NCBI GenBank assembly: GCA_947448885.1
Contig: CANFPJ010000003.1
Location: forward strand, 5,090 to 69,089
DNA length: 64,000 nt
Direction of reading: 5' to 3'
DNA from: Comamonadaceae bacterium
GTDB taxonomy: Bacteria; Pseudomonadota; Gammaproteobacteria; Burkholderiales; Burkholderiaceae_C
Shown here: positions 5,600 to 61,838 of the stretch, piece after piece
How the letters are laid out: every line of letters begins with the position of its first letter
How positions within the stretch are numbered: the stretch's first letter is position 1
The notes under the pieces: generated by a model
Database searches by the model: none
What the model saw: the letters and a program-made list of their open reading frames with translations, nothing else
Told to the model about the DNA's origin: nothing
Position numbers and translations under genes: made by a program

Positions 5600-5637
5600 G
5601 TGGATCATGCTGGGCCAGTTCACGTGCATGGGTGGGA

Positions 5638-6039
5638 TCAAGCGGGCACAAAGATGGGGACATTCTGGCCTGAGGCGCTGGCCGAAAAACCCAGCTTGAC
5701 CCGCATCCCAATGTGCACGGCATCCCAATCGGGTGCCTGCAAATGCGTCAACACGGTGACCCCCTCATCCAGCCGCACATAAGCCATCAAATAGGGCGTT
5801 TCAACGCCGCGAACCATCCGGGTGAAGGTGTAAATTTCGCCTTCGCCCGCACTGGCCCGCCATTCGGTTTGATCACTGCCGCAGTGGGGGCAATACGGCC
5901 GCGGGTAATGGTGCGACACATCGCAAGCCAAGCAATGCTTGAGCATCCACCGGCCTTGCTGGGCCTGTTCCCAATAGGTGTGGTTTTCTGGGTTTTGCAG
6001 CGGGTCTTGAAAGACCAAAGGGGTGGCGGGTGTGTTCAT
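5638..6039 (-). CDS. Zn-ribbon/OB-fold (DUF35, ChsH2-like) acyl-CoA-binding protein
   Basis: CLAC...YPRPYCPHC zinc ribbon, GEGEIYTFT, VRLDEG, IGMRV; directly downstream of the thiolase. Confidence 0.92.
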   Translation of the reverse strand: MNTPATPLVFQDPLQNPENHTYWEQAQQGRWMLKHCLACDVSHHYPRPYCPHCGSDQTEWRASAGEGEIYTFTRMVRGVETPYLMAYVRLDEGVTVLTHLQAPDWDAVHIGMRVKLGFSASASGQNVPIFVPA

Positions 6040-6040
6040 G

Positions 6041-7210
6041 TCAAACCCTTTTCATGATCAAGGTGGCGGCGCCATGGCGCGAGCCCAAAAATCCACCGAT
6101 GCCATTGGCCAAAGCAAATTCCAAATTGGGCACCTGCACTTTGGGGTGGGCTTGACCGCGCAGTTGGCGCACCGCTTCAATGACCTTGGTCATGCCACCG
6201 CGGTTGGCCGGGTGGTTGTTGCACAGGCCACCCCCATCGGTGTTGACCGCGAGCTTTCCTTGCCCGGCAATCAACTGGCCATCGGCGACAAACCGCCCCC
6301 CCTCACCTTTGGCACAAAAGCCCAAGTCTTCGAGTTGCATCAGCACCGTGATGGTGAAACTGTCGTAAATGGAGGCGTATCGGATGTCGCGTGGGGTGAT
6401 GCCGGCTTGCGCAAATGCACGGGGTGCGGTCCATGCCGTGGCGGAGTGGGTCAAATCCACCTGCCCGCCCGATTGGCCCTTGACCGAGGCCGACATGCCC
6501 ACCACTTGCACCAGTGGTTGGTGCAATGATTTCGCCACATCGGGGTGAACCACCACCACCGCACCGCCGCCATCCGTCACAACACAGCAATCGGCGCGCC
6601 GCAATGGGTCGGCCACACGGGGTGAATCCAACACGTCCTGCACCGTCATCACCTGTCGCAGCAAGGCGTTCGGGTTGTGTTGCGCATGGTGTGACATGGC
6701 CACCTTGATCCAAGCCAATTGCTCAGAAGTGGTGCCAAATTCGTGCATATGCCGCATGGCACACATGGCATAGCTGTTGAGCGGCGTGGGCATGTAAGGG
6801 CGTTCAAACTCGGCATCCGGCGCGGTGTCGCCATAGTTGCGCGGCTTGGTCCCGCTGGAGCCCTCGGACTTGGGGCGCCCCGCCAAGGTGACCAAGGCCA
6901 CTTTGCAACGGCCCGCCGCAATCGCTGCGGCTGCTTCACCCACATGCGACAGGTAAGAGGCCCCGCCCAACTCGGTGGTCTGCACCACTTGAAGCCGCTT
7001 CAAGCCCAAATAGTCAACGATCGATGTCGGCCCCAAACCCGGTGCATCGCCCGCACAGAAATACGCATCCACATCCTTGAGGGTCAATCCGGCATCGCGC
7101 AAGGCGCCGTGGGCCACATCGGCATGCAAACGCGCCACCGAATGGTCTGGCGCCACCCGCAATGGGTGCTCGTAAATGCCGGCCATGCAGGCTTGAAAGG
7201 CTGCGCTCAT
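6041..7210 (-). CDS. SCP-x/Ltp2-type thiolase-domain protein
   Basis: HAQHNPNA, DCCVVTDGGGA, IYDSFTITV, EDLGFC.KGEGG, NTDGGGL. ELGGAS occupies the position where canonical thiolases have the catalytic Cys. Confidence 0.9.
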   Translation of the reverse strand: MSAAFQACMAGIYEHPLRVAPDHSVARLHADVAHGALRDAGLTLKDVDAYFCAGDAPGLGPTSIVDYLGLKRLQVVQTTELGGASYLSHVGEAAAAIAAGRCKVALVTLAGRPKSEGSSGTKPRNYGDTAPDAEFERPYMPTPLNSYAMCAMRHMHEFGTTSEQLAWIKVAMSHHAQHNPNALLRQVMTVQDVLDSPRVADPLRRADCCVVTDGGGAVVVVHPDVAKSLHQPLVQVVGMSASVKGQSGGQVDLTHSATAWTAPRAFAQAGITPRDIRYASIYDSFTITVLMQLEDLGFCAKGEGGRFVADGQLIAGQGKLAVNTDGGGLCNNHPANRGGMTKVIEAVRQLRGQAHPKVQVPNLEFALANGIGGFLGSRHGAATLIMKRV

Positions 7211-9262: not shown

Positions 9263-10669
9263 TCAAGCCGCCAACCACTGGGCCAGCTCGCGGGTGCGGA
9301 TGTGGGGCAGGTTCAGCACGCCGTCGCGCAATGCGCTCGCAGCTGACACGGGCCAAGCCAGCGCCGCGTTGTCCATGAACTTGGCCACGATATCGGCATG
9401 GGCAATGGGCCGACCAGGCGCGCCGCGGTTGATGGGTTCTTGGTGCACGACCTGGCGGCCATCGGCGAAGTGCAACACCACCTCTCCCGGGAAGTATTTG
9501 GGGTAATCGGCATCGGGGTCGACTTCATAGCGCACTTTGTCGGCCAAGGCCTGGGTGAGCGGGTCTTGCATGGCCTCGGGCTCCAAGGCTTGCAGCCCGA
9601 ACTTGCCATGGCGCAAGGCCGTGGCGATGCCATATTGCACGCTGAACTGGGCTTCATAAGCATTCGACGGTCGGCGCTTTTGGGCCACTGGCTCGCACAC
9701 CACCGGCACGTAACCCTGGGCCACACGGGCCACGATGTGCGACAACTCCCCCCGCGCCAACTCGGGGCGCAAAGCGCTGGCCGCATCGATGCAGGCATGG
9801 ACAAAATGGCATGCGGGGATGGGCTTGACCGCCACGCGCATCAACTCCCAGGCCACGCCCAAACCCTGCGTGGCCAACTCCATGCGACAAGCGCCCAGGG
9901 CTGTCCCCAAATGGCTGGCGTACAAACCGTATTGGCCTTCGTAGGCGGTGGATGGCCCGCTCATGCCACGCCGCGCCAAGGCCACCGCCACGATGGCGCT
10001 GGAGGCCGCCCATCCTGGGTGGAAGCGTTTGGTGCCTGCGCCCTCTTTCAAAAACTCCAAGGTCCCGCCGGCCATCGACAGGGCGATGCCCTGGGCCTGC
10101 ACAGTTTGCGCCTCGTCCAACCCCCACAGACGAGCCACCGCGATCACGCAACCAAAAATACCGGCCACCGCTGTGGGGTGAAAGCCCGCTTTGTGAAACA
10201 CGCCACCGGCCACCATGCCGACGCGGGTGGCCACCTCCATGCCGGCCACATAGGCCAACAGCAAATCTTCACCGCTGCTGTCTTGTTGGCAGGCCACGCT
10301 GAAAGCGGCGGCCAACACCGAAGCGGTGGCATGGACCACGCTGCCGGGGTGGGTGTCGTCGTAATCCAAACCGTGGATCAACAAGCCGTTGATCAAGGCC
10401 GCATCGCGGGCTGGCAAATGGGCTTGCATGCCAAACACCGGAACGGGGCCTGTGCTGGGGCACAGGTCTTGCATCGCCAGCCATGTTTGTTGGGCAAAAG
10501 GGTAGCGCCCTGAAGCCAGCGCGATGCCCAGGGCATCCAAGATCAGGTGCTGGCTTTGGGCCACCACCTCGGCGGGAAGATCGCGCCATTGCAACGCATG
10601 CGCCCAATGGGCATAGCTTGCCGCAATAGGTCCAGCCACTGGGGGGGCATCGGCGTCAGGCTTTTGCAT
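9263..10669 (-). CDS. MmgE/PrpD family protein
   Basis: AALINGLLIHGLDYDDTH, GFHPT, KRFHPG, KPIPACH, AQFS. Start set at MQKPD. Confidence 0.9.
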   Translation of the reverse strand: MQKPDADAPPVAGPIAASYAHWAHALQWRDLPAEVVAQSQHLILDALGIALASGRYPFAQQTWLAMQDLCPSTGPVPVFGMQAHLPARDAALINGLLIHGLDYDDTHPGSVVHATASVLAAAFSVACQQDSSGEDLLLAYVAGMEVATRVGMVAGGVFHKAGFHPTAVAGIFGCVIAVARLWGLDEAQTVQAQGIALSMAGGTLEFLKEGAGTKRFHPGWAASSAIVAVALARRGMSGPSTAYEGQYGLYASHLGTALGACRMELATQGLGVAWELMRVAVKPIPACHFVHACIDAASALRPELARGELSHIVARVAQGYVPVVCEPVAQKRRPSNAYEAQFSVQYGIATALRHGKFGLQALEPEAMQDPLTQALADKVRYEVDPDADYPKYFPGEVVLHFADGRQVVHQEPINRGAPGRPIAHADIVAKFMDNAALAWPVSAASALRDGVLNLPHIRTRELAQWLAA

Positions 10670-10683
10670 ATGTTTGACCTGGC

Positions 10684-11187
10684 TCAATCGTCCACGGCAT
10701 GGCCACGGCATGCCACCAAAATGATGCGCTCAAAGGACATGATCTCGGCGCCATCCTGGTTGATGCCACGGGTGTGCACGGTCACGATGCCCTGGTGGGG
10801 GCGTGACTTGGACTCGCGTTTGTCCAATACCTTTGTTTCGGCATACAAGGTGTCGCCCGCGAACACCGGGCCGCTGAGTTTGATGTCTTTCCAACCCAAA
10901 TTCGCAATGGCTTTGGCACTGACGTCATTGACCGTCATGCCCACCACCACCGCCAACGACAAGGGGCTGTTGATGAGCAAGCGGCCAAATTCGCTTTTTT
11001 TGGCGAACTCCATGTCGCAATGCATGGGGTGCTGGTTCATGGTGAGCAGCGCAAAACTGATGTTGTCTTGGTCGGTCAAAGTGCGTCCTGGGCGGTGCTC
11101 ATACACATCGCCGACTTGAAAATCCTCAAAGTAACGGCCATAAGAGGTGCGGTAGCGCTGGGGTCCGATTTCGCGGGCTGTGATCAT
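10684..11187 (-). CDS. MaoC-family hotdog (de)hydratase (mesaconyl-CoA/beta-methylmalyl-CoA hydratase-like)
   Basis: GRYFEDFQVGDVYEHRPGRT, TMNQHPMH, PVFAGDTL, SRPHQGIV; AGGAG RBS before MITARE. Confidence 0.9.
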   Translation of the reverse strand: MITAREIGPQRYRTSYGRYFEDFQVGDVYEHRPGRTLTDQDNISFALLTMNQHPMHCDMEFAKKSEFGRLLINSPLSLAVVVGMTVNDVSAKAIANLGWKDIKLSGPVFAGDTLYAETKVLDKRESKSRPHQGIVTVHTRGINQDGAEIMSFERIILVACRGHAVDD

Positions 11188-11218
11188 GGGTTCTCCTGTT
11201 TGTGGTTTTAAAAATGTT

Positions 11219-12331
11219 TCATGCCAAACTTTTTTCTTCGGCCAACGTCGGGTAATCGTTGTAACCATCGGGCCCGCCACCGTAAAACCGTTTGGTGATG
11301 GCCTTTTGATAGGGCCCATCGGCACGGATGCGCTCGGGCAAATCCGGGTTGGCCATCCACAAGCGGCCAAACGAGACGGCATCAATGGACCCATTGGCAA
11401 TCAGGGTTTGGGCCGTTTGTGGGTCTATCCCCCCGTTGGCAATGATGGGCCCATCAAACACCGGTCGGGTGAGGGACAGCATTTGATCGCGGTCAAATTG
11501 GCCTGCCCAAAAGTTGGTGTCGGCCAACTCCAACCAGCCCATGCCATGGCGGGCGAGTTCATCGACCAAATAGCGGTAAGTGGGAACGGGGTCCGGGTCC
11601 AACGCGCCATTGAAGGTGGTGAAGGGGGAAATGCGCATGCCCACGCGCCCCGCAGGAAACTCGGCAATCATGGCGCGCATGGCTTGCAACGCGAATTGAG
11701 CGCGCCCCTGGGGTGAGCCCCCATAGGCATCGGTGCGGCGGTTCAGATAGGGTGACAAGAACTGATGTGGCAAATAGCCATTCGCTGCATGCAACTGAAC
11801 CCCATCAAAGCCCACTTCGCGCGCGGCACGGGCCGCACGGCCAAAGGCGGCAATGGTGTCTTCCACTTCAGCCAAAGTCATTTCACGTGAAGGACAGGCA
11901 GTTTTCTTGCGAAAAATGCCTTGCTCATCGCGGCCCCACACGGTGATGGTGTCGATGTTGTCATTCACCCCCGACGGTGACAGCGGGGGATCGGGTTGCT
12001 CCCGGTTGTCCGCGGCCACGCGGCCGCCGTGCCACAACTGCAGCGCGATCTTGCCGCCGGCTTGGTGCACGTGATCCACCAAAACCCGCCAAGCAGCGAT
12101 TTGCTCAGCCGTGAAGATCCCTGGCGTGCATTCCCAAGCGTTCGAGCGCAAAGCCACGTTGGTGGCCTCGGCAATGATCAGACCCGCTGAAGCCCGCTGC
12201 ACATAGTGCTCGAACATCATGGGGGTTGGCACGCGCTCGGGGGTGGCACGCGAGCGGGTCAATGGCGCCATCCAAATGCGGTTGGCGAGTTGAAGGTCGC
12301 CCAGTTGGATGGGGGAAAACAAGTCAGACAT
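11219..12331 (-). CDS. Old yellow enzyme family alkene reductase (NemA-like)
   Basis: NRIWMAPLTRSR, QRASAGLI, QLWHGGR, GFDGVQLHAANGYL, NPDLP, GYNDYP. Confidence 0.93.
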   Translation of the reverse strand: MSDLFSPIQLGDLQLANRIWMAPLTRSRATPERVPTPMMFEHYVQRASAGLIIAEATNVALRSNAWECTPGIFTAEQIAAWRVLVDHVHQAGGKIALQLWHGGRVAADNREQPDPPLSPSGVNDNIDTITVWGRDEQGIFRKKTACPSREMTLAEVEDTIAAFGRAARAAREVGFDGVQLHAANGYLPHQFLSPYLNRRTDAYGGSPQGRAQFALQAMRAMIAEFPAGRVGMRISPFTTFNGALDPDPVPTYRYLVDELARHGMGWLELADTNFWAGQFDRDQMLSLTRPVFDGPIIANGGIDPQTAQTLIANGSIDAVSFGRLWMANPDLPERIRADGPYQKAITKRFYGGGPDGYNDYPTLAEEKSLA

Positions 12332-12391
12332 GGTGTTCGGTCTCCTGGGTCGAAATAGAAATCAGCGTTCAGCGGGGCAGCAGCTTGGGGC

Positions 12392-12694
12392 TCAAGCCAT
12401 GGTGGGTACAGCCCAGGCCTGCACCTGGGCGCCGTTTTCGCGCAAGGGTTTGATCTGTGCGTATTCTTTGGAATGCCAAAAGGCCTTCAGATGGTCCATG
12501 CTGGGAAACTCCAACACGATCAGGCGTTGGCCATCGTGCTGGCCCTCCATGACCTCGAGGTCCTTGCCAATGGCCAGCACCTTGCCGCCATGCAGCGCCA
12601 TCAAGGGCTGGACTTGCGCTTGGTATTGCTTGTAGCGCGCCATGAACGCTGGGTCTGGGCTGAGTTGGGCTTGGATGATGAACAAAGCGGGCAT
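12392..12694 (-). CDS. DUF1330 domain protein
   Basis: HGGKVL...EVMEG...LIVLEFPSM...FWHSKEY pattern. Confidence 0.88.
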   Translation of the reverse strand: MPALFIIQAQLSPDPAFMARYKQYQAQVQPLMALHGGKVLAIGKDLEVMEGQHDGQRLIVLEFPSMDHLKAFWHSKEYAQIKPLRENGAQVQAWAVPTMA

Positions 12695-12697
12695 GGG

Positions 12698-14242
12698 TCA
12701 ATCCAATGGATGGGTCAGTTGTGCGATCAGCAGGTCTTTGAGCTTTCCGCGCTCGACTTTTCCCGTCGGGTTGGACGGAATCGCATCAATGAAGAAGTAA
12801 TGGCGCGGTCGCTTGAAGGCGGCCAAATCGGGGTTTTGCAAACAAAACGCGTCCATGGCCGCGGCATCCAAGGCGGGGTCTTTGCGCACGATGGCAGCGC
12901 ACACCACTTGGCCCCACTTGGTGCTGGGCAAACCCACGGCGGCTGCGTTGGCCACGCCTGGGTGTTGGAACAAAATGTTTTCAACCTCTGAAGGGTGGAT
13001 GTTTTCGCCACCGCTTTTGATGGTGTGGTCCATGCGCCCCATCACGGTGATGAAGCCCTCGCTGTCGGCCACCGCAGCGTCGCCAGAAAAATACCAGCCG
13101 TTGCGCAGCGTCTCCGCGGTTTTGTCGGGCAGACCCCAGTACTCGGTGAACAAGGTCGGGCCACGGGCGATCAGTTGACCAATTTCACCGGCGCTGCAAA
13201 CCTGATTCGGGTCCACGCTGTCGTTGCGAATCACCCGCACTTCCATGTTGACCGCCGCTTGGCCCACGCTGCCCAGTTTTTCTGGCCGCCGTCGGTAGTC
13301 ACACACGGTGACCGCCAGGGCTTCGGTGGAGCCGTAGATGTTGCCAAAGTAGTCTGGGAACAAAGCCATGCATTTGCGTGTCACGTCGTCGGCCAGGGTT
13401 TGTCCGCCATAAAAACCACAGCGCAAACTGCTCAGGTCGTATTGGCTCAAATCGGCGGCCACCAGCATCACCATTTGGGTGGGCACACCGTGCAACACGG
13501 TGATGCGCTCAGCTTCGACCAAAGACAAGGTTTCGTGCACATCAAATCCACGCGTCAGCACATTGGTGCCGCCGATCTGGATGAAGGGCATCAACTGCAA
13601 ATGGAATTGGGCAATGTGGAACAAGGGTTTGTTGTGCAGGATCACATCTTCGTGACGAAACCCCACTTCGACCGCCATGGTCATGCTGCCCACGATTTCG
13701 GCCAAATGGGATCGCACCACCCCTTTGGGTCGTCCCGTGGTGCCGGAGGTGTACATGATCAAGGCCGGGTCGTGCCAATCGACATGAACCTGTGGCTCCT
13801 GATGGCCCCCTGCGGACACAAAGTCGTCGAAGCGAATTTCGCCCGCTTGAACCTGGTCCCCGATGTAGATGAGCTTTTCCAACTTCAATTGGTCTTTGAT
13901 GGCCATGACCGGTGCGCGCAGGTTTTCCTCGAACACCAGCATCTTGGCGCCACAGTCTTCGATGATGTACTTCACCTCGTTGGGCGCCAACCGGTAATTG
14001 ATGGGCACGGGAATCGCGCCCAACTTCATCAAGGCGTAAAAGCCTGTGATCTGCTCTGGCAAGTTGTAGGTGAAAAAGGCCACCCGATCACCCTTGACCA
14101 CACCGCTGGCCGCAAACGCGCCCGCAGCGCGGTTGACCCAGTCATTCCACTGGCCGTAGGTCCAGCGTTGGCCTTCAAAGACCAAGGCGGTTTTGTGCGG
14201 CCATTTCAAGGCCGATTGGGTCATGGTGGCAGCGAGGTTCAT
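12698..14242 (-). CDS. Acyl-CoA synthetase (AMP-forming, class I adenylate-forming)
   Basis: YTSGTTGRPKG, YGSTE, SGD, IKSGGENIHP, LAAFKRP, NPTGK. Start set at MNLAA. Confidence 0.93.
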   Translation of the reverse strand: MNLAATMTQSALKWPHKTALVFEGQRWTYGQWNDWVNRAAGAFAASGVVKGDRVAFFTYNLPEQITGFYALMKLGAIPVPINYRLAPNEVKYIIEDCGAKMLVFEENLRAPVMAIKDQLKLEKLIYIGDQVQAGEIRFDDFVSAGGHQEPQVHVDWHDPALIMYTSGTTGRPKGVVRSHLAEIVGSMTMAVEVGFRHEDVILHNKPLFHIAQFHLQLMPFIQIGGTNVLTRGFDVHETLSLVEAERITVLHGVPTQMVMLVAADLSQYDLSSLRCGFYGGQTLADDVTRKCMALFPDYFGNIYGSTEALAVTVCDYRRRPEKLGSVGQAAVNMEVRVIRNDSVDPNQVCSAGEIGQLIARGPTLFTEYWGLPDKTAETLRNGWYFSGDAAVADSEGFITVMGRMDHTIKSGGENIHPSEVENILFQHPGVANAAAVGLPSTKWGQVVCAAIVRKDPALDAAAMDAFCLQNPDLAAFKRPRHYFFIDAIPSNPTGKVERGKLKDLLIAQLTHPLD

Positions 14243-14271
14243 GGCTGGGTTGTGCAAAGTGGTTTCAAAAA

Positions 14272-14892
14272 TCAAATCATGCGGGGCCAACGCGCCCAAT
14301 GGAATCCGAATGGCACGTCATCTGCGAGGGCCGGCTTGGCGTGCCCCCTGGGCGTTGGCAAATCGAAGGCATCCATCGCCACCCCGTGGGCTTGCAAAGC
14401 AGCCAAGGTCGAAGACGGCAGCACCCCGTGGGCCATGCCCTGCTGTTCAAAAGCCACTTGTGCAGACCCCAGGCCGAGCAGGTTGACCTCAGGCCATGTG
14501 GGCCACGCTGGTCTGTGTCGGCTGGCTTGCGTGGGCGCAGTCGCCGCTCGGCCTGCATGCCATTCGGGTCGGCCATGGAAGCGCGCACAGGCCACGCACC
14601 CATGGCGTGAGTAGGTTTGTCCGCGCCAAGCGTGGGCCGGCACAAACCCATGCTCGCGGGCCTGCCACCCTTGGTCGTTGATGGTCAAGTCGCCATGCAG
14701 CAGCAAAAAATCTTCATCCACACTGTAATGCCCGGGTCGAATTCGGCGCCAATTCGGGGGGAATTTCACCAAGGCCCAAAAGTGATCTGGCGCCAACGAC
14801 GGCAACCGCGCCAATTGAACCGCCCCACTGGCATCGGGCATGGCGTATTCCCGCCAGGTCAAGTCCAATGGGGGGTTGAGCGCCATGCCCAT
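14272..14892 (-). CDS. Hypothetical protein with a ChrR-like cupin N-terminal half
   Basis: In operon. LVKFPPNW.R..PGHYSVDEDFLLLHGDL resembles a cupin barrel. Confidence 0.6.
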   Translation of the reverse strand: MGMALNPPLDLTWREYAMPDASGAVQLARLPSLAPDHFWALVKFPPNWRRIRPGHYSVDEDFLLLHGDLTINDQGWQAREHGFVPAHAWRGQTYSRHGCVACARFHGRPEWHAGRAATAPTQASRHRPAWPTWPEVNLLGLGSAQVAFEQQGMAHGVLPSSTLAALQAHGVAMDAFDLPTPRGHAKPALADDVPFGFHWARWPRMI

Positions 14893-14895
14893 GGC

Positions 14896-15324
14896 TCAGG
14901 CCTTGCCCATGCGGATCTCGCTCATGGCTTGCGCCACCAAGCGCTCACCGCACATGAGTTGCTGATCGATGTGCACCACCCAATGGCCCGCGGGTGCATC
15001 GATGGCCATCACCTGGCCGCGTGCCACCAGGTGGTCGCCGGCGAAGGCCATGGATTTCATTTTCAAGGCCATGCGCTGGATGAACGCCTGGGGGCCAGCC
15101 CAACGCATGGCCTCCCGCGCAAACACAGCGCCAAAAGCTTGACCATCGATCAACACCCCCGGCAATTGCTTGGACTGGGCATGCGCTTTGTCATAGTGCA
15201 AACGGTGCCAGTCCCAGGTGGCCGCACCATAGGCCACCAAGTCGACTTCGGTGAAGGTGTGGGCCTGTTCTGGCAAGGCATCGCCAGGTCGCAGCTGGCT
15301 GGGGTCAAGGCTGGGTCTGAGCAT
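14896..15324 (-). CDS. MaoC-family dehydratase subunit
   Basis: YGAATWDWHRLHYD hydratase-2-like motif, AFAGD. Start set at MLRPS; overlaps the upstream gene. Confidence 0.85.
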   Translation of the reverse strand: MLRPSLDPSQLRPGDALPEQAHTFTEVDLVAYGAATWDWHRLHYDKAHAQSKQLPGVLIDGQAFGAVFAREAMRWAGPQAFIQRMALKMKSMAFAGDHLVARGQVMAIDAPAGHWVVHIDQQLMCGERLVAQAMSEIRMGKA

Positions 15325-15817
15325 GGGGCACCAAAGGTTGAAAGACCAAGGCTTCGCGGTTGGTCGCGACGATGTGGCCTTGCGCATCGGCATACGTCGC
15401 CACCGACATCACAAACAACTGCGTCCCGCCCCTGGAAGACGGCTTTTCCACCATGCTCTCCAAAGTCCAGGTCACAGATATGCGGTCGGTTGCCAAGATC
15501 GGGCGGTTGAAGGTGTAGTCGTTGCCGGCGCGGATCATGCGGCAGCCGGGCACAGGCAAATGCCACTCATGCCCGATATACCCATCGGCATCGGGTGCGC
15601 GGTGGGCGTATTGACAGGTCTCACAGACCAGCGTGGGTGGGGCAATCACACCTTCGTGGCCAGCGGCTTGGGCGTAGGCCTCGTCGACATACAAAGGGTT
15701 GTCGTCGTGCATGGCCAATGCGAAGTAGCGGATGGATGCATGACCCAAGGCTTCGCGCGCAGGGTAATGCACTTGACGACCCATCAGCGCTTGCAGTTCT
15801 GGGGTGAGCAAGGCCAT
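15305..15817 (-). CDS. MaoC dehydratase N-terminal (FAS1-like) domain subunit
   Basis: IRYFALAMHDDNPLYVD, IAPPT, YTFNRPI motifs; pairs with the downstream MaoC gene. Confidence 0.87.
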   Translation of the reverse strand: MALLTPELQALMGRQVHYPAREALGHASIRYFALAMHDDNPLYVDEAYAQAAGHEGVIAPPTLVCETCQYAHRAPDADGYIGHEWHLPVPGCRMIRAGNDYTFNRPILATDRISVTWTLESMVEKPSSRGGTQLFVMSVATYADAQGHIVATNREALVFQPLVPHAQTQP

Positions 15818-55694: not shown

Positions 55695-55723
55695 AAAAAA
55701 CCCCACGGGGTGAGCGTGGGGTT
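55695..55723 (-). terminator. Rho-independent terminator ending the Gly-rich cluster
   Basis: AACCCCACG...CGTGGGGTT hairpin with an A-run on the + strand (U-tail on the - strand). Confidence 0.75.
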
Positions 55724-55798
55724 GGCAGCGAAAGGTTTCGGTGAGGTTCTCAAACAGAGCCCTGCAGGCTCATTTGAGGCGACCCCCCTCAGGCGGTC

Positions 55799-56899
55799 TT
55801 AACGCTTGGTGGGCGACCTGGAGAGAAACGACACCGAGGCCACGCTCTGGGTGCTCAGGAATGAGCCACTGCTCACACCATAAGAACCCGATGCCGACGA
55901 CCTGGTTCTGGTCGTGACACCACCACGCATTTGCGAAGTGCCGCCAGCTGAGGCCACAGCCAATCCACCTGGGCCGCCTTGTCCGCCAGCACCGCCAGCA
56001 CCGCCAGGGCCACCGCCCTGAGGACCGCCGGGTCCTGCACCCTGTGGGCCAGGACCACCTGGGCCGCCTGCTTGTTGGGTACCACCCGGTCCACCAGGAC
56101 CCGGTGCTGGTCCGGGCGCAGGGCCGCCCTGCGGGCCACCCGCGCCGCCGGCTTGACCACCAGCTGTCGCACCGCCTTGACCACCGCCTGGACCCGCTTG
56201 TCCTCCCGGCGCGCCGCCGGGTTGTGCACCCGCCGGTGCGGGTTGACCACCACCCTGGGGGCCACCAGGAGCACCACCTGGCGCGCCCATGCCGCCCATG
56301 GGCGCTCCCATTCCGGCGACCATCTGGCCACCCGGCATGCCGCCGCCCATTGAAGCGCCAGGAGCACCCATGCCACCGCCCATGGGGCTGCCCGCCATCA
56401 TGCCCATGCCACCCATCGAGCCACCCTGTGCACCCATGGCACCCCCAGGGGCGCCCACGCCGCCACCCATGGGGCTACCAGCCATGCCCATGCCGCCACC
56501 TGGCATTTGCCCACCAGGTGCAGGCGGGGTTCCAGCCATGGGTTGCTGAGGCTGCCCGGGCTGACCGCCAGGTGCGCCATTGCCGGGCTGTCCCATTTGA
56601 CCAGCGCCCGCTCCACCAGGGCCCTGACCACCCGCCATGGGGGTTGGACCTGCACCCGGTGCTTTGCCCGGCGTCATGCCTGGGATCGAACCCGGTGCCG
56701 TGCCCGGTGGCGTGCCAGCAGGTGCGCCCGGAGTGGGACCACCGGGTTGGTTATTGCCCCCCTGAGGAGGCGGTCCACCAGGTTGTCCAGGCAAAGCGCA
56801 TGTCGGTGGGCAGGTTGAGACAGGGTCTGCAAAGGCCATCCACGGCATGGCAGAAAGCGCCAACGTCGCTGCCCACTTGGAAGTTTTATAAGGGTTCAT
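55799..56899 (-). CDS. Secreted Gly/Pro/Gln/Met-rich low-complexity protein (366 aa)
   Basis: Signal peptide ending AFA, CPPTC, GPGG and MGG repeats, basic Ser/Thr/Arg tail. Confidence 0.8.
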   Translation of the reverse strand: MNPYKTSKWAATLALSAMPWMAFADPVSTCPPTCALPGQPGGPPPQGGNNQPGGPTPGAPAGTPPGTAPGSIPGMTPGKAPGAGPTPMAGGQGPGGAGAGQMGQPGNGAPGGQPGQPQQPMAGTPPAPGGQMPGGGMGMAGSPMGGGVGAPGGAMGAQGGSMGGMGMMAGSPMGGGMGAPGASMGGGMPGGQMVAGMGAPMGGMGAPGGAPGGPQGGGQPAPAGAQPGGAPGGQAGPGGGQGGATAGGQAGGAGGPQGGPAPGPAPGPGGPGGTQQAGGPGGPGPQGAGPGGPQGGGPGGAGGAGGQGGPGGLAVASAGGTSQMRGGVTTRTRSSASGSYGVSSGSFLSTQSVASVSFLSRSPTKR

Positions 56900-56947
56900 C
56901 GTTTTGACTTTTCTTCAGTAACTTCAGATCAAGAATTCATCAACGGT

Positions 56948-57742
56948 TCATCGGGTACCAGGCGCTGTGGTGCTGCTGGAGGGGCCACCCATCGAGCCAC
57001 CGAGGCCACCCATGCCACCCATTTGGCCACTCGGCGGGCCGCTCATCTGAGACGCCCCCGAAGCACCAGGACCTCCCATGCCGCCACTGGGTGGGCCAGC
57101 CATCATCCCGCCAGGGGCACCCATGCCACCTGCGGCTGCACCGGTAGGTCCACCCATTGCCATGCCTGGGCCGCCCATGCCGCCACCTTGTCCACTGGGC
57201 GGGCCACCCATACCGGCACCGGGGGCACCCATGCCACCCATTTGTCCGCCGGGGGCGCCCATGCCGCCCGCTTGTCCGCTGGGAGGACCACCCATCCCAC
57301 TGACAGGACCGCCCATGCCGCCCATTTGGCCGCTGGGGGGGCCGCCCATGCCACCACCAGGGGCACCCATGCCACCCATTGGGCCTTGAGGAGGACCACC
57401 CATGGCGCCGGCTGGACCGCTCATGCCGCCCATTTGTCCACTGGGGGGGCCGCCCATGCCACCACCAGGGGCACCCATGCCACCCATTGGGCCTTGAGAA
57501 GATCCGCCCATCGCGCCGCCAGGGCCGCCGGGGGGGCCACCCATTTGTCCGTTGGGAGGGCCACCCATTTGCCCTTGCGCAGGGCCGCCAGTTTGTCCAC
57601 CCGCTTGCGCACCGCCACCACCACCTTGGTTGGGCATCTGACCACCGGGCGCAGCGGGCTGAGCGCTCACCAAACAGGTGGCCGCAGCCCACAACAAAGT
57701 CATGGCGGTGGCACTGCGTTTGAAGTTTTTGTAATGATTCAT
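56948..57742 (-). CDS. Secreted Gly/Met/Pro-repeat protein (264 aa)
   Basis: Signal peptide ending VSA-Q; tandem MGGPPSGQ/MGGMGAPGG units. Confidence 0.8.
   Translation of the reverse strand: MNHYKNFKRSATAMTLLWAAATCLVSAQPAAPGGQMPNQGGGGGAQAGGQTGGPAQGQMGGPPNGQMGGPPGGPGGAMGGSSQGPMGGMGAPGGGMGGPPSGQMGGMSGPAGAMGGPPQGPMGGMGAPGGGMGGPPSGQMGGMGGPVSGMGGPPSGQAGGMGAPGGQMGGMGAPGAGMGGPPSGQGGGMGGPGMAMGGPTGAAAGGMGAPGGMMAGPPSGGMGGPGASGASQMSGPPSGQMGGMGGLGGSMGGPSSSTTAPGTR
57314..57497. repeat. Intragenic near-identical direct repeat, 108-bp period
   Basis: catgccgcccattt...gccgcccatgccaccaccaggggcacccatgccacccattgggccttgag occurs from both 57314 and 57422. Confidence 0.8.
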
Positions 57743-57782
57743 TTTTGACTTCGTTGATGCGGAGGGGGTCGAGCGATGTCGA

Positions 57783-59012
57783 TCACATGGTCAAGACGTT
57801 TTTCAAGCCGCTGACTCGGCCCAAAAACAGCAAGGCCTTGGCATAGTTCACTTTGGCGTCAATGGCTTCCACTTCAGTCGCGTGCCAGTTGTTGACATCA
57901 TCCAAACTGGCCATTTTTTTGTCGGCCAGGTTTTTTTGGTTGTCCAGCGCGGTTTGCAATTTGAGCTTGGCACTGTTGAATTGCAGCAAGGCTTGGTTGA
58001 CTTCAAAGTAAACCCGGTTTTTGGCGTCTTCGAGCATGATTTCGGCTTGCAAGCGGGCGTTTTTCGCGGCCACCAAATCAGCGTCATACAACTGGCTGAT
58101 GGGGATGGGCACGCTGACCGAGAAGCCATAAGAGATTCCACGCTCATAGGTGGTCGAATATCCGCTGTACGTACCCACGTACCCTGGTGTGTCTGTGCCA
58201 TAGACACTCACGCTGTAATCCAGATTGCGGTTTTTTTGTGCCAGCACATCGGCGGCTTTGGACACGTTGAATGCCGCTTCCAGCGACAAAATATCGGGGC
58301 GTGAGCGGCGGGCGTTGTCGACCAGGCTTCTCACGTCAAAGTCCCTGGGGGCGACATTGAGTTCGGCCGTGGGGTCGGGCAGCACATTGCTGGGCTTGCC
58401 CAAGAAACTGGCCATGCCCAAAGAAAAGTATTTGAAGTCGTTGGCTTGGTCGGTCTTGAATTGCTTGTAATCGTCAATGGCCAGCTTCAGGTCTGGGTTG
58501 CCCATTTTTTCCAATTCTGTTTGGGCCTTGTCTTTGACCAGCCAAAGGTTTTTGACACGCAAGGCGTCCAAGAACAAAAAGGCGGAGTCAACTTCCACGC
58601 CATAAACCATGGCGCCCAAGTCCACCGATTGGCGGGCCAACTCAGTGCCCGAATACTCTTTGCGAGCGTCTTGCTTGCCGCGGCCTTCGATATTGCCCGA
58701 CAAGGTGTAGGTGCCTGATTGGGGTGAGCGACTTGCAAATGCGTCCGTCGGTGCCTGGGCGTAAAAGGTACCCCGGCTGTAGCTGAATGAGGGGTTGAGG
58801 TTGTAAGCCGACATGGACTGCTGCCATGAGGCGGTGGATTCATTGGCTAACTTTTTGGTCCGAATCCAGGTGTTGCTTTCCTTGACTTGCGCAATGAATT
58901 CACTGAGCTTGATGGGCTTCAAATTGACATCATCGAGTTTGAAAACCGCAGCATCTTGTGCAAAGGCTGGACACACAAAGGCCATGCCCAAGGAAACAAC
59001 TAACTTTTTCAT
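57783..59012 (-). CDS. TolC/outer-membrane efflux (OEP) family protein, orphan
   Basis: Signal peptide ending AFA-Q; two OEP-like repeats (NPSFS...RGK..AR; RPDI...GFSVSVPIP...A.N.R..A). Confidence 0.8.
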   Translation of the reverse strand: MKKLVVSLGMAFVCPAFAQDAAVFKLDDVNLKPIKLSEFIAQVKESNTWIRTKKLANESTASWQQSMSAYNLNPSFSYSRGTFYAQAPTDAFASRSPQSGTYTLSGNIEGRGKQDARKEYSGTELARQSVDLGAMVYGVEVDSAFLFLDALRVKNLWLVKDKAQTELEKMGNPDLKLAIDDYKQFKTDQANDFKYFSLGMASFLGKPSNVLPDPTAELNVAPRDFDVRSLVDNARRSRPDILSLEAAFNVSKAADVLAQKNRNLDYSVSVYGTDTPGYVGTYSGYSTTYERGISYGFSVSVPIPISQLYDADLVAAKNARLQAEIMLEDAKNRVYFEVNQALLQFNSAKLKLQTALDNQKNLADKKMASLDDVNNWHATEVEAIDAKVNYAKALLFLGRVSGLKNVLTM

Positions 59013-59033
59013 GTTCACACCACTATCAGAATA

Positions 59034-59076
59034 AAGAAAAAATGTCTCCCATACCTGTCGCAGATATGGGAGACAT
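59034..59076 (-). terminator. Rho-independent terminator after the small Gly/Ser/Gln gene
   Basis: ATGTCTCCCATA...TATGGGAGACAT 12-bp stem followed by a T-rich tail on the - strand. Confidence 0.8.
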
Positions 59077-59099
59077 GACTCACTTAAGCCATCAAAGGA

Positions 59100-59396
59100 T
59101 TACTTGGATTGGCCTTGACCACCCTGCTGGCCACCACCGCTTTGACCGCCAGACTGGCCACCGGTTGAGCCGCCGCCTTGGCTGCCACCAGCACTTTGGG
59201 TTTGTGAGCCGCCACCAGATTTCTGCTGGCCGCCACCGCTTTGACCGCCAGACTGACCACCGGTCGAGGAAGCGCCAGTTGAAGCGCCACCAGATTTCTG
59301 CTGACCGCCACCGCTGGCGCCACCGCTGGTTTGACTGATGGTGGCCATGCTGGTGGTGACCATGGCAACTGCCAAGAAGATTTTGGTTAATTTCAT
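59100..59396 (-). CDS. Small secreted Gly/Ser/Gln-rich low-complexity protein (98 aa)
   Basis: GGAG RBS, leader MKLTKIFLAVAMVTTSMA. The mature part is almost only G/S/Q/T/A/K, with STGGQSGGQSGGGQQ x2 and GGGQQKSGG x2. Confidence 0.8.
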   Translation of the reverse strand: MKLTKIFLAVAMVTTSMATISQTSGGASGGGQQKSGGASTGASSTGGQSGGQSGGGQQKSGGGSQTQSAGGSQGGGSTGGQSGGQSGGGQQGGQGQSK

Positions 59397-59714
59397 GTGA
59401 GACTCCAAAGTTGTGAGATGTGTTTTAGCCGTTATCCGGCACCCATAGGCCTGCGCATTCTTAGTCAGACAAAATGGGAAAACTCACAATAACACATCAA
59501 AATATCCTTTTATATTAAAAACGTCGATATTTATTTAAATATGAATTTGCGCCACATTGAATGGTGCGTCACATTTGAACGCCAACCCGAATGGCAATGG
59601 CAGCGGCAGCAGCCAGGACATATGAACATTTGATTTGTTTTGTTTTTCTTCACAAGAAAATCTGCCCTGCCCATTGGCGGTGAATGCCAGGTGCCGACAG
59701 GCTGTTTTCAGGAC

Positions 59715-59747
59715 AAAAAAGCCTGCCCAACGGGCTCTCGTTGGGCA
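59715..59747 (-). terminator. Rho-independent terminator
   Basis: TGCCCAACG...CGTTGGGCA hairpin with an A6 run on the + strand, just downstream of the 59775..61838 gene. Confidence 0.65.
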
Positions 59748-59774: not shown

Positions 59775-61838
59775 TCAAGGCTTTTTCTTCAGCACCGCCA
59801 ACAAGCTGCTGTAGTCGTCGCGCCAGGCGGCAAAACCTTCGGGTGCCCCGACCTCGCGCATGGCCTGCAGCGAAGCGTGGTCGAAAAAATCCTTGCGGTC
59901 CGTGATCACGACCCATCTGGAGGCAAACGCCAAATCCTGGTCGCCGGGGTGCTCGAGCAGGCGCATGTGTTTGCCATGGTGTTCGGCCGCGCGCTTGAGC
60001 ACGGGCACCAGGTCCAAAAAGGCATTGGTCACGTTCATCGCCAACACGCCATCCGGTTTGAGGTGTTTGAAATAAATTTGGAAGGCTTCGAGGGTGAGCA
60101 AATGCACGGGCACCGAGTCGCCCGAGAAAGCGTCCATCACCAACACATCAAATTGCTGCGAAGGCTCACGCTCGAGTTGCAAGCGGCCATCGCCCAAAAC
60201 AATCTCCAGATTGGCGGGGGTGTCGCTCAGGTAGGTGAATTTTTCCTGGGCCAGTTCGATCACCAAGGGGTCGATTTCATACAAGCGGTACACATCGCCC
60301 GCACGCCCATAGGCCACCAAGGTGCCCACGCCCAAGCCCAGCACACCCACGCGCAAGGGGCCTGTTTCGCCTTTGGCCAACATGGCCAAACCCACGCCCG
60401 AGGCGGGGGTGAAGTAGGTGGTGGGGCGCCTGCGCAAATCATCGCTCACATATTGTTGGCCGTGGATGATTTGGCCGTGCAGCATGCGTCGGTAGCCGCC
60501 GTATTCGTACATTTTGAGCGAGCCATAAAAATTGCGCGCCTTCCAAGTCACCCCCTCCGATTTGGCTTGGTGGTAGCTCACGCTGGCCCACACCAACGCC
60601 ATGGACATGGCCCCACCCAGCACACCCACCGATGTGCGCCAGTTTGGCGTCATCCCCAGCGCTGGGCCCAACAAAGCCGCCAGCACCACGACCGCCGACA
60701 GCACCAGACCCACCGAATATTCATAGTTGCTGTTGAAGAAATAAGGCGCGATCACGCCGACAAAAAAACCACCCAAAAAGCCACCCACCGACAGCATCAA
60801 GTAGTAGCCCGTCAGGTGGCGAGGGTTGGGCTTTTGCCCGGCCAACTCGCCGTGGCACACCATGCACACCCCAAAAAACGACAGCAGGTTCAGCCCCACG
60901 CTGAATGCCACCGGCCACTCGCCCATGCGCAAGTTGGGCAAATAGGCCAACAGGGCCAAAGACAGCACAAACAAAGGCAACCAGATCAACCGCTTGTACA
61001 AAAAAGGCATCTCGAAACAAATGATGAATGAGAGCAAATACAAGGCCAACGGCATGACCCACATCAAGGGAATGGGGGCGATGTTTTCGGTCATGAAGCT
61101 GGTGTCGGCCACCATCAGCATTGAGGGACAAGCGGCCAAGGCCACCCAGATGAGCTGCTGGACCAGGCGCGGTGCTGCTTCGGGCAACTCTGCGCTGTCC
61201 TGGGAGGCGCCACTGGGGGCCGTCTCAGCGCTGGCCAAAGCCAAACTGCGCCGCGACAAATAAACGCAGCACAGCACAAACACCACAAAGAACGCTGACC
61301 ACATCCACGACTGCATGCGGGTGGGCAAGGCCGACTCGATCACCAAGGGATAGGCCAGCAAAGCCAGCATCGAGCCCAAATTGGACAAGGCAAACAAGCG
61401 ATACGGCACCACGTCTGATCGCTCTTTGGCAAACCAAGCTTGAACCAAGGGGCCGGTGGTGGACAAGACCATGTAGGGCAGGCCAATCGTCACACCCAAC
61501 AAATACAAAATCAACCACGTTGGGTCTTCAGACCCCTGGGGCTTCAAGGCCTCCGAAGGGCTGATGGGCAAAAACAAAAGGCACAGCAGCAACAGCGCAA
61601 TGTGCAAAAAGCTCTGTCGAGACGGGCTCAGGAGGCGCATCACCCAGTGGGTGTACAAATAGCCCAGCAACAACAAAGATTGGAAAAACAACATGCACGC
61701 CGTCCACACCGAGGCGGCGCCGCCAAACCACGGCAAGATCATCTTGCCCATCATGGGCTGAACTTGAAATAATAAAAACGCGCTCAAAAAAATGGTGATG
61801 GCGTAGGCCAAAATCGGGGTTTGCTCGTGCTTTTTCAT
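59775..61838 (-). CDS. Fused multi-TM membrane/spermidine-synthase-like (SAM-fold) protein
   Basis: FLLFQVQP...LPWFGG...VW..C..FFQ, Y.LFA.SN.GS, CHGEL, VLGLGVG, YEIDP, GDGR, DAFS.D..P.HLLT, WRDD.S. Confidence 0.88.
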   Translation of the reverse strand: MKKHEQTPILAYAITIFLSAFLLFQVQPMMGKMILPWFGGAASVWTACMLFFQSLLLLGYLYTHWVMRLLSPSRQSFLHIALLLLCLLFLPISPSEALKPQGSEDPTWLILYLLGVTIGLPYMVLSTTGPLVQAWFAKERSDVVPYRLFALSNLGSMLALLAYPLVIESALPTRMQSWMWSAFFVVFVLCCVYLSRRSLALASAETAPSGASQDSAELPEAAPRLVQQLIWVALAACPSMLMVADTSFMTENIAPIPLMWVMPLALYLLSFIICFEMPFLYKRLIWLPLFVLSLALLAYLPNLRMGEWPVAFSVGLNLLSFFGVCMVCHGELAGQKPNPRHLTGYYLMLSVGGFLGGFFVGVIAPYFFNSNYEYSVGLVLSAVVVLAALLGPALGMTPNWRTSVGVLGGAMSMALVWASVSYHQAKSEGVTWKARNFYGSLKMYEYGGYRRMLHGQIIHGQQYVSDDLRRRPTTYFTPASGVGLAMLAKGETGPLRVGVLGLGVGTLVAYGRAGDVYRLYEIDPLVIELAQEKFTYLSDTPANLEIVLGDGRLQLEREPSQQFDVLVMDAFSGDSVPVHLLTLEAFQIYFKHLKPDGVLAMNVTNAFLDLVPVLKRAAEHHGKHMRLLEHPGDQDLAFASRWVVITDRKDFFDHASLQAMREVGAPEGFAAWRDDYSSLLAVLKKKP

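Follow-up and report, generated by a model that had tools for sequence, protein, structure and literature searches.

A TolC-family channel encoded in a 64-kb stretch of DNA from a Comamonadaceae bacterium (contig CANFPJ010000003.1; hereafter the window) belongs to a subfamily that has lost the tips of both periplasmic hairpins, lies apart from genes for membrane fusion proteins (MFP) and resistance-nodulation-division (RND) pumps, and is linked instead to a low-complexity protein with a predicted export signal that ends in a short conserved motif. The channel gene is the second of four open reading frames (ORFs) on the minus strand, read in the order A, TolC, B and C; coordinates are positions of the whole window, the genome of which is labelled G000, and labels such as L018 designate the loci of its relatives. 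We consider that there is an even chance that these genes specify an adaptor-free, probably ungated TolC channel with a docked, disordered partner, which exports or displays Sec-delivered polymers at the cell surface. The direction of transport is the less well supported part of this proposal; we hold it to be highly probable that the channel functions together with its partner and needs no canonical adaptor. The computed basis comprises the modelled fold, the hairpin deletions, gene linkage, the motif, the lack of neighbouring MFP or RND genes and a fusion to an AMIN domain in one protein cluster; the deletions, the motif and the fusion are additional to an earlier annotation of the same DNA (the sequence-only reading). 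The elements on which the argument turns are the following:

57783-59018 as ORF, likely 57783-59012, minus strand: TolC-family outer-membrane factor (OMF), Sec-like leader, no lipobox seen
58464-58532, minus strand: shortened turn of hairpin H3/H4, from alignment to canonical outer-membrane efflux proteins (OEPs), segment of 64 aa against 80
57879-57956, minus strand: shortened turn of hairpin H7/H8, from the same type of alignment, segment of 56 aa against 70-71
55799-56899, minus strand: gene C, 366 aa (Gly 34%, Pro 17%, Ala 13%, Gln 7%, Met 7%), Sec-like leader; the dedicated partner
56798-56812, minus strand: CPPTC cysteine pair close to the mature N-terminus of C, from alignment of C-type proteins
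55808-55828, minus strand: C-terminal motif FLSRSPT of C, family pattern [FYL][ILVA]xx[SATPG]P

The assignment to the TolC family, already made by the sequence-only reading, is confirmed by a match to PF02321 (E 2e-13) and by an AlphaFold monomer model (predicted local distance difference test 83.9) that shows the alpha/beta-barrel protomer fold of the family, matches solved chains of TolC, CusC and OprM and aligns with Escherichia coli TolC (1ek9) in Foldseek at E 1e-14; a structure comparison of the model (VIA) gave Z 25.3 and a root-mean-square deviation of 7.3 over 371 aligned residues. The full-length, gate-carrying H3/H4 and H7/H8 hairpins typical of the family are missing. A quick tree with long outgroup branches places the subfamily as one clade beside CzcC-like proteins (Shimodaira-Hasegawa-like approximate likelihood ratio test 100, stem 2.22), and from sequence comparison it appears to be monophyletic and derived from CzcC-like channels. 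The protein is a previously undescribed variant of the known TolC/OEP family: the open-access literature searched yielded no description of the subfamily, and the excerpts of PMC8407342 deal only with pump-linked OMFs. Its likely start is the ATG at 59012 (409 aa), which is kept in 8/8 aligned rows, the GTG at 59018 giving 411 aa.

Adaptor and channel normally dock tip to tip. When eight subfamily members were aligned with six canonical OEPs of the same genome, they proved to be gapped at both periplasmic hairpin turns. Measured between fixed anchors, hairpin 1 spans 61-65 residues in 40/40 subfamily copies against 80 in 9/9 canonical OEPs, and hairpin 2 spans 55-57 residues in 39/40 copies (one row has a run of N) against 70-71, each hairpin being about 15 residues shorter than canonical, with the gate and adaptor-contact tips gone. 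A profile search of 1.84 billion representatives returned 15 clusters that were nearly full length and scored at least 378 bits; the next protein of full length reached 166 bits. All 15 of these clusters are short at both hairpins; of the 61 next relatives aligned (at least 390 aa, taken from ranks P0156-P0225), 58 have both hairpins at full length, three are partly shortened and not one has both hairpins short. A tip pattern, G-x5-D/E, separates hairpin 1 of the canonical proteins (8/9) from that of the subfamily (4/40), and the turns that remain are the least conserved segments of the protein (1.7 bits vs 2.1-3.2 for 16 other segments), so that no conserved docking surface is evident there. 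Canonical OMFs carry their primary and secondary gates on these helices, and the hairpins of the adaptor disrupt and open the gates (excerpts of PMC8277102). Judging from the alignments, the loss of the tips likely gives a shorter, open mouth without an adaptor site.

The gene neighborhoods were searched with profiles of MFP, RND and type I ATP-binding cassette (ABC) proteins built from the genes of G000 itself. Across 30 wide loci, with flanks of up to ~9 kb that in several cases are short on one side and with some loci from close kin, MFP or RND genes were found at 0/30, the same profiles matching 4/4 control loci; the sole ABC match was a gene among glycosyltransferases in L118. The claim of the sequence-only reading that no ABC or RND pump and no MFP lies nearby holds: no MFP or RND gene was found in the whole window, and its only ABC matches, three frames of ~260 aa, are separated from the block by more than 30 kb. 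A Pfam scan of 72 neighbours (62 of the 137 listed ORFs, one shorter ORF and nine from four other loci, the other 75 being judged by eye) retrieved no MFP, no FtsX/MacB and no acyltransferase family. Each of the six further OEP genes that G000 has in full length lies in an MFP/ABC/RND neighborhood, as judged from N-terminal sequences and MFP positions. Around the subfamily, the flanking context varies by lineage but the pairing of channel and partner stays, spanning copies down to 28% identity.

Could the channel nevertheless act in efflux or type I secretion by pairing with an inner-membrane pump whose gene lies elsewhere, an atypical adaptor perhaps joining the two, and its neighbours have nothing to do with transport? 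Its nearest relatives are CzcC-like OMFs, which neighbour MFP and RND genes in the genomes where they were seen; the adaptor with which Borrelia BesC functions has no hairpin (excerpts of PMC8277102); G000 has MFP genes without an adjacent OEP; and a fusion of a major facilitator superfamily (MFS) transporter with spermidine synthase lies just upstream in the clade of the window. We nonetheless find this explanation quite improbable: the tips are deleted and the remaining turns unconstrained, the MFS fusion is seen only in the close clade of the window, and the linkage with the partner across 28% identity would be left unexplained. Moreover, three complete TolC-bearing genomes of the genus g82 have 2-3 PF13437 genes, no surplus over G218, which lacks the TolC (a small sample).

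The other half of the evidence concerns the gene that follows the channel. Signal peptides were judged by eye and by a crude home-made rule; the first downstream gene passes this rule at 41/44 loci, a low-complexity rule at 43/44 and both at 40/44, the background among 3055 genome ORFs being 46%, 17% and 7% (211/3055), respectively. The pattern found at the end of C occurs in the last 18 residues of the downstream low-complexity protein of 29/42 TolC copies. Of the remaining 13, six are cut by contig ends, one has the motif behind an in-frame stop and six carry a variant, [KE]SxxQGxxF[IL], which is found in the partners of one sub-branch with S, Q, G and F invariant in 10/10 proteins; the L057 partner joins both forms, run together. 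The motif or its linked variant is thus present at 36/36 evaluable copies, usually in the next gene, against a background of 132/10,732 ORFs. The less circular part of this evidence comes from a profile of the motif run over 241 genomes of g82. It gave 19 matches at E<0.005, of which 18 adjoin the TolC and the last is a fragment where a contig ends, and it missed 12 TolC-bearing genomes; the 211 g82 genomes without this TolC thus contain a single match at E<0.005, the contig-end fragment. In G000 the profile matches C only.

Genes A and B lack the motif, and B is missing altogether in L021/L022, which marks it as accessory. In L116, seven further motif-less paralogs with near-identical leaders come after the partner; of the run of seven genes counted there behind tolC (9679-15350), six encode P/G/S/A-rich proteins whose leaders are MK[TS]K[LI]LI.SL.LIA.S.YAQPS-like. 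Taken together, these observations suggest a core of two genes, for the channel and its motif-bearing partner, accompanied by variable secreted extras.

The main rival to export starts from the same pairing: C would dock at the shortened mouth and replace the lost gate, and the disordered chains would act in the periplasm as the selective filter of a pore for diffusion or uptake. One motif-bearing partner accompanies each of the 36 evaluable channels, the channel has no gate region left, H3, H7 and H8 carry polar residues that are invariant or almost invariant, and peptides can bind TolC (PDB 7ng8, by title TolC with KlebC). A plug or filter would, however, leave unexplained the arrays of motif-less secreted paralogs, seven of them in L116, and a gene A that has an upstream element and a hairpin to itself, and partner length and composition vary widely; we judge it unlikely.

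This variation also bears on what the partners are made of. Their length ranges from ~120 to 480 aa, and composition shifts from G/P/M in the clade of the window to P/S/Q in L054 and A/S/T in many g82 genomes. Gly amounts to 2-9% in 15/29 partner rows, where Ala/Ser/Thr or Pro/Ser/Gln dominate, and Gly richness, which the sequence-only reading had taken as the defining trait, has to be abandoned as such. The outcome that would have refuted that reading, homologs sitting with MFP/RND genes and lacking comparable neighbours, did not materialise: no MFP or RND gene appeared at the 30 loci and low-complexity neighbours with signal-peptide-like starts did at 40/44, Gly richness being the part that failed. 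It had further offered, as an alternative, a Met-rich periplasmic sponge for metals or oxidants tied to a CzcC/CusC-like channel, for which Helicobacter CrdAB-CzcBA provides a comparison. Beyond residue 30 there are 31 Met in B and 22 in C, the ancestry is CzcC-like, and a cluster named CrdB ranks third in the ESM Atlas (score 0.98); as a general role, however, a sponge is highly implausible given 0-2% Met in 14/29 partner rows, 0-1% His in 29/29 and no CzcB/CzcA gene beside any copy.

In one cluster of 23 members, an AMIN domain precedes the tip-less channel in fusions of ~598 aa (P0148/P0286, E 8e-7); a search for longer fused forms (808-2305 aa) returned one unrelated RND-OEP protein only. 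In the secretin PilQ, AMIN domains attach to peptidoglycan and so set the position of the secretin (excerpts of PMC10653833), and the fusion is in keeping with a channel that the cell wall, and not a pump, holds in place. It would equally fit a non-transporting scaffold that ties the outer membrane to peptidoglycan or holds a periplasmic spacer gel, a role with which nearly uncharged polymers and a CPPTC pair that could cross-link are also compatible. Against it stand barrel strands and two extracellular loops that keep conserved Tyr/Pro/Gly positions, and the patchy presence of the module (6/139 genomes in the genus of the window, 30/241 in g82) is unlike that of a core envelope part, which renders this explanation very improbable.

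How, then, would an adaptor-free channel with a docked partner export or display polymers? Their leaders suggest that Sec would deliver A, B and C to the periplasm, where C would bind the channel by its short conserved motif and act as an anchor or gatekeeper, a CsgF-like role, A and B being exchangeable cargo. The mouth would be open on the periplasmic side, and chains of small, nearly uncharged residues could pass passively, driven by entropy, to stay tethered or be released as a hydrophilic surface coat. In its most complete form, the proposal describes a new minimal system for both secretion and display: a CzcC-derived TolC minus tips and gate as a stand-alone, energy-free exit pore, a motif-bearing disordered protein that anchors, and a cargo of Gly/Pro/Ala/Ser polymers, exported by Sec and encoded in arrays that vary, giving a protein coat on small Burkholderiales cells. 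We advance this version tentatively, its chances falling a little short of even.

Several points weigh against export or display by such a channel. The signal-peptide rule passes 46% of all ORFs; the motif pattern and its profile were derived from the same loci and widened after inspection, so that the positives are partly circular and come from kindred genomes; four weak motif matches (E 0.011-0.039) occur in genomes without the TolC; and in L116 the motif is internal, ~300 residues from the protein end. A looser tip pattern for hairpin 2 fails to separate canonical OEPs (8/9) from the subfamily (16/40), and these genomes, G000 included, have MFP genes with no OEP gene next to them. The partners have neither a conserved composition nor a folded domain hinting at an extracellular job, the lack of the motif in A and B leaves their routing to the channel unaccounted for, and a pore that never closes would come at a high cost to the cell if nothing plugged it.

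Compared with known systems, the channel is nearest, in the tree and in the profile search, to the CzcC/CusC-type OMFs of heavy-metal RND pumps (PF02321), with which it shares fold, two-repeat layout and an EGxGKRxAR-type motif; it differs in the deletion of both tips, the lack of an MFP/RND neighbour and the linked low-complexity proteins. Heavy-metal efflux of the CzcCBA, CusCBA or CrdAB-CzcBA kind comes with CzcA/CzcB neighbours, which are not found here, nor do the partners have a general metal-binding composition. The resemblance to Helicobacter CrdAB-CzcBA lies in a small partner gene adjoining a TolC-like gene and in the ESM Atlas look-alike, but in the literature excerpts CrdA is copper-binding and the system includes CzcB/CzcA. 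Linked MFP and inner-membrane pump genes, the mark of tripartite RND/MFS/ABC efflux and of type I secretion, were seen neither at the 30 wide loci nor in the 64-kb window. The putative cargo does not resemble type I substrates either, having Sec-like leaders, no Pfam match and a short C-terminal motif unlike RTX.

The sequence-only reading started from classical type I substrates, which lack signal peptides, and from a TolC that normally needs inner-membrane partners. This premise is incomplete, as Sec-delivered periplasmic cargo leaves through TolC-family channels in MacAB-TolC export of STII and in the Aat system (AatPABCD with Aap/CexE), although with the help of an adaptor (excerpts of PMC7943197, PMC8277102); in the present case, Sec-like leaders are predicted on putative cargo. 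In the same excerpts, both systems depend on an adaptor (AatB or MacA) and an ABC motor, and Aat on the acyltransferase AatD as well, whereas here no MFP or MacB-like gene is linked and the partners look disordered, unlike the small folded proteins exported by Aat and MacAB. Borrelia BesABC offers an OMF with a gate predicted to be weak and an adaptor without hairpin, but BesC keeps adaptor and RND pump (excerpts of PMC8277102); in our case the channel itself has lost its tips and no adaptor is linked.

As a model of how such a system might work, curli secretion offers an analogy: CsgG is an ungated, ATP-free pore through which Sec-delivered, unfolded subunits pass, and CsgF anchors at the surface in association with the channel (excerpts of PMC4389571). 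The present channel differs in having the TolC rather than the CsgG fold, with no curlin Pfam match on A, B or C and no CsgE-like cap seen. Gly/Pro-rich chains are poor amyloid formers. Fap secretion through FapF is grouped with curli secretion as comparable. Among the kinds of system that we found, none combines a TolC lacking an adaptor with a disordered partner that bears a motif; the module departs in defining traits from tripartite efflux, type I secretion, Aat and curli.

In the export systems described in the literature consulted, an adaptor and a motor in the inner membrane assist the TolC-family channel (excerpts of PMC7943197, PMC8277102). A natural clade minus gate and docking tips, in which a disordered partner with a short motif is kept down to 28% identity, would demonstrate that such a channel can take on another role without them, and a presumably open natural variant makes the role of the tips directly testable. 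If the proposal is true, two genes suffice as a route to export or display unstructured polymers; should the partner act as a plug or filter instead, this manner of gating a TolC would still be new. The module further suggests that Polynucleobacter and related Burkholderiales have an envelope feature so far unrecognised, which may bear on grazing and phage contact.

The remaining elements of the block are as follows:

59100-59396, minus strand: gene A, 98 aa (Gly 34%, Ser 18%, Gln 16%), Sec-like leader, GGGQQKSGG-type repeats, no partner motif; candidate cargo
56948-57742, minus strand: gene B, 264 aa (Gly 39%, Pro 14%, Met 12.5%), G/P/M repeats, Sec-like leader, no partner motif
59455-59560, limits approximate, minus strand: AT-rich stretch upstream of A, conserved in five aligned loci, putative promoter region
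59724-59747, minus strand: terminator-like hairpin after the upstream MFS/spermidine-synthase fusion gene, z -3.55
59042-59076, minus strand: hairpin between A and tolC, 16-bp stem plus U-run, z -6.59
55699-55723, minus strand: terminator-like hairpin closing the block, weaker, z -2.44

The four co-oriented genes are present with the lengths and compositions first reported, and all four diverge from their relatives mainly at third codon positions of the annotated frame (28/16/73 changes at positions 1/2/3 for C and 19/9/83 for TolC, both against L018), by which an origin of the ORFs as frame artefacts is ruled out. The Sec-like leaders noted earlier on all four proteins were recognised again, with predicted cleavage after SMA, AFA, VSA and AFA. 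Terminators had been placed at both ends of the block; hairpins do flank it (z -3.6 and z -2.4), but folding scores make the internal one at 59076-59042 the strongest (z -6.6), and a single four-gene unit is accordingly not supported. The internal hairpin is kept with stem changes in relatives (7/8 rows by eye), its counterparts in L024 and L036 folding at z -3.3; it likely attenuates read-through, so that gene A is probably transcribed more than the genes downstream. A promoter scan of the AT-rich stretch found no sigma-70 consensus site on the minus strand. Three RNA libraries of one study contained 5-9% of the words, and contigs from RNA libraries, mostly 85-99% alike and hence from relatives, cover parts of the four genes and their flanks, showing neither transcription nor its level; a greater depth over A was given no weight.

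Gene A is 252-351 aa long in four relatives against 98 aa in the window, where its shortness may reflect repeat collapse in the assembly or a real deletion; in L070 an A-like gene sits downstream of C. Gene B has one charged residue past position 30. The CPPTC pair is present in 6/9 rows of C, with related Cys pairs in L067, L068 and L092. None of the four proteins matched an NCBIfam model, and A, B and C had no Pfam match, curli families included; sequence searches of the PDB gave nothing useful, the ESM Atlas no usable match for C, and plasmid and phage searches no match. Glycosylation as a general idea was dropped, PF11846 (O-glycosylation ligase-type) matching in 1/5 genomes, G000 only.

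At higher ranks, strong matches number three in 401 genomes at order level and two in 401 at phylum level, with only G000 matching among 400 scored at class level. Where records of the clade carry a name, it is that of Polynucleobacter, of Comamonadaceae or of another member of the Burkholderiales; L053 and L055, bins labelled otherwise, consist of short contigs and may be misbinned. In G640 (L118:8125-9347), tolC is frameshifted and the partners are intact, and the G695 partner (L134:881-1366) has an in-frame stop ahead of the motif.

Among minor observations, residues 93-99 of the window TolC, in extracellular loop 1, read FASRSPQ, close to the FLSRSPT of C, a similarity restricted to the closest relatives and possibly due to chance. 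The C-type partners of L024, L044, L049, L052, L075, L056 and L054 carry near their N-terminal third a Gln/Leu/Met-rich, QQQ[LM]LLLQQ-like segment that may be a second docking element and is lacking in the window C. Upstream of tolC in L057, two small secreted N/S/P-rich paralogs (5607-5936 and 6562-6864) share a C-terminal HxYxGxVTLxK, and another G/A-rich signal-peptide protein without the motif is encoded in G000 (C78:13526-14101). In most g82 loci of one sub-branch (L078-L096), an alpha/beta hydrolase gene lies directly upstream of tolC together with a divergent DUF4118 gene, and the partner is followed by tRNA-like sequence. The fused MFS/spermidine synthase of the window (59775-61838; NF037959), which lies upstream and is kept only in its close clade, was rejected as a channel partner on account of this restriction. 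Finally, the segment 44000-51000 of the window has a GC content of 44-49% vs 53-69% from 51000 on, and may have been acquired together with its aromatic-catabolism-type genes.

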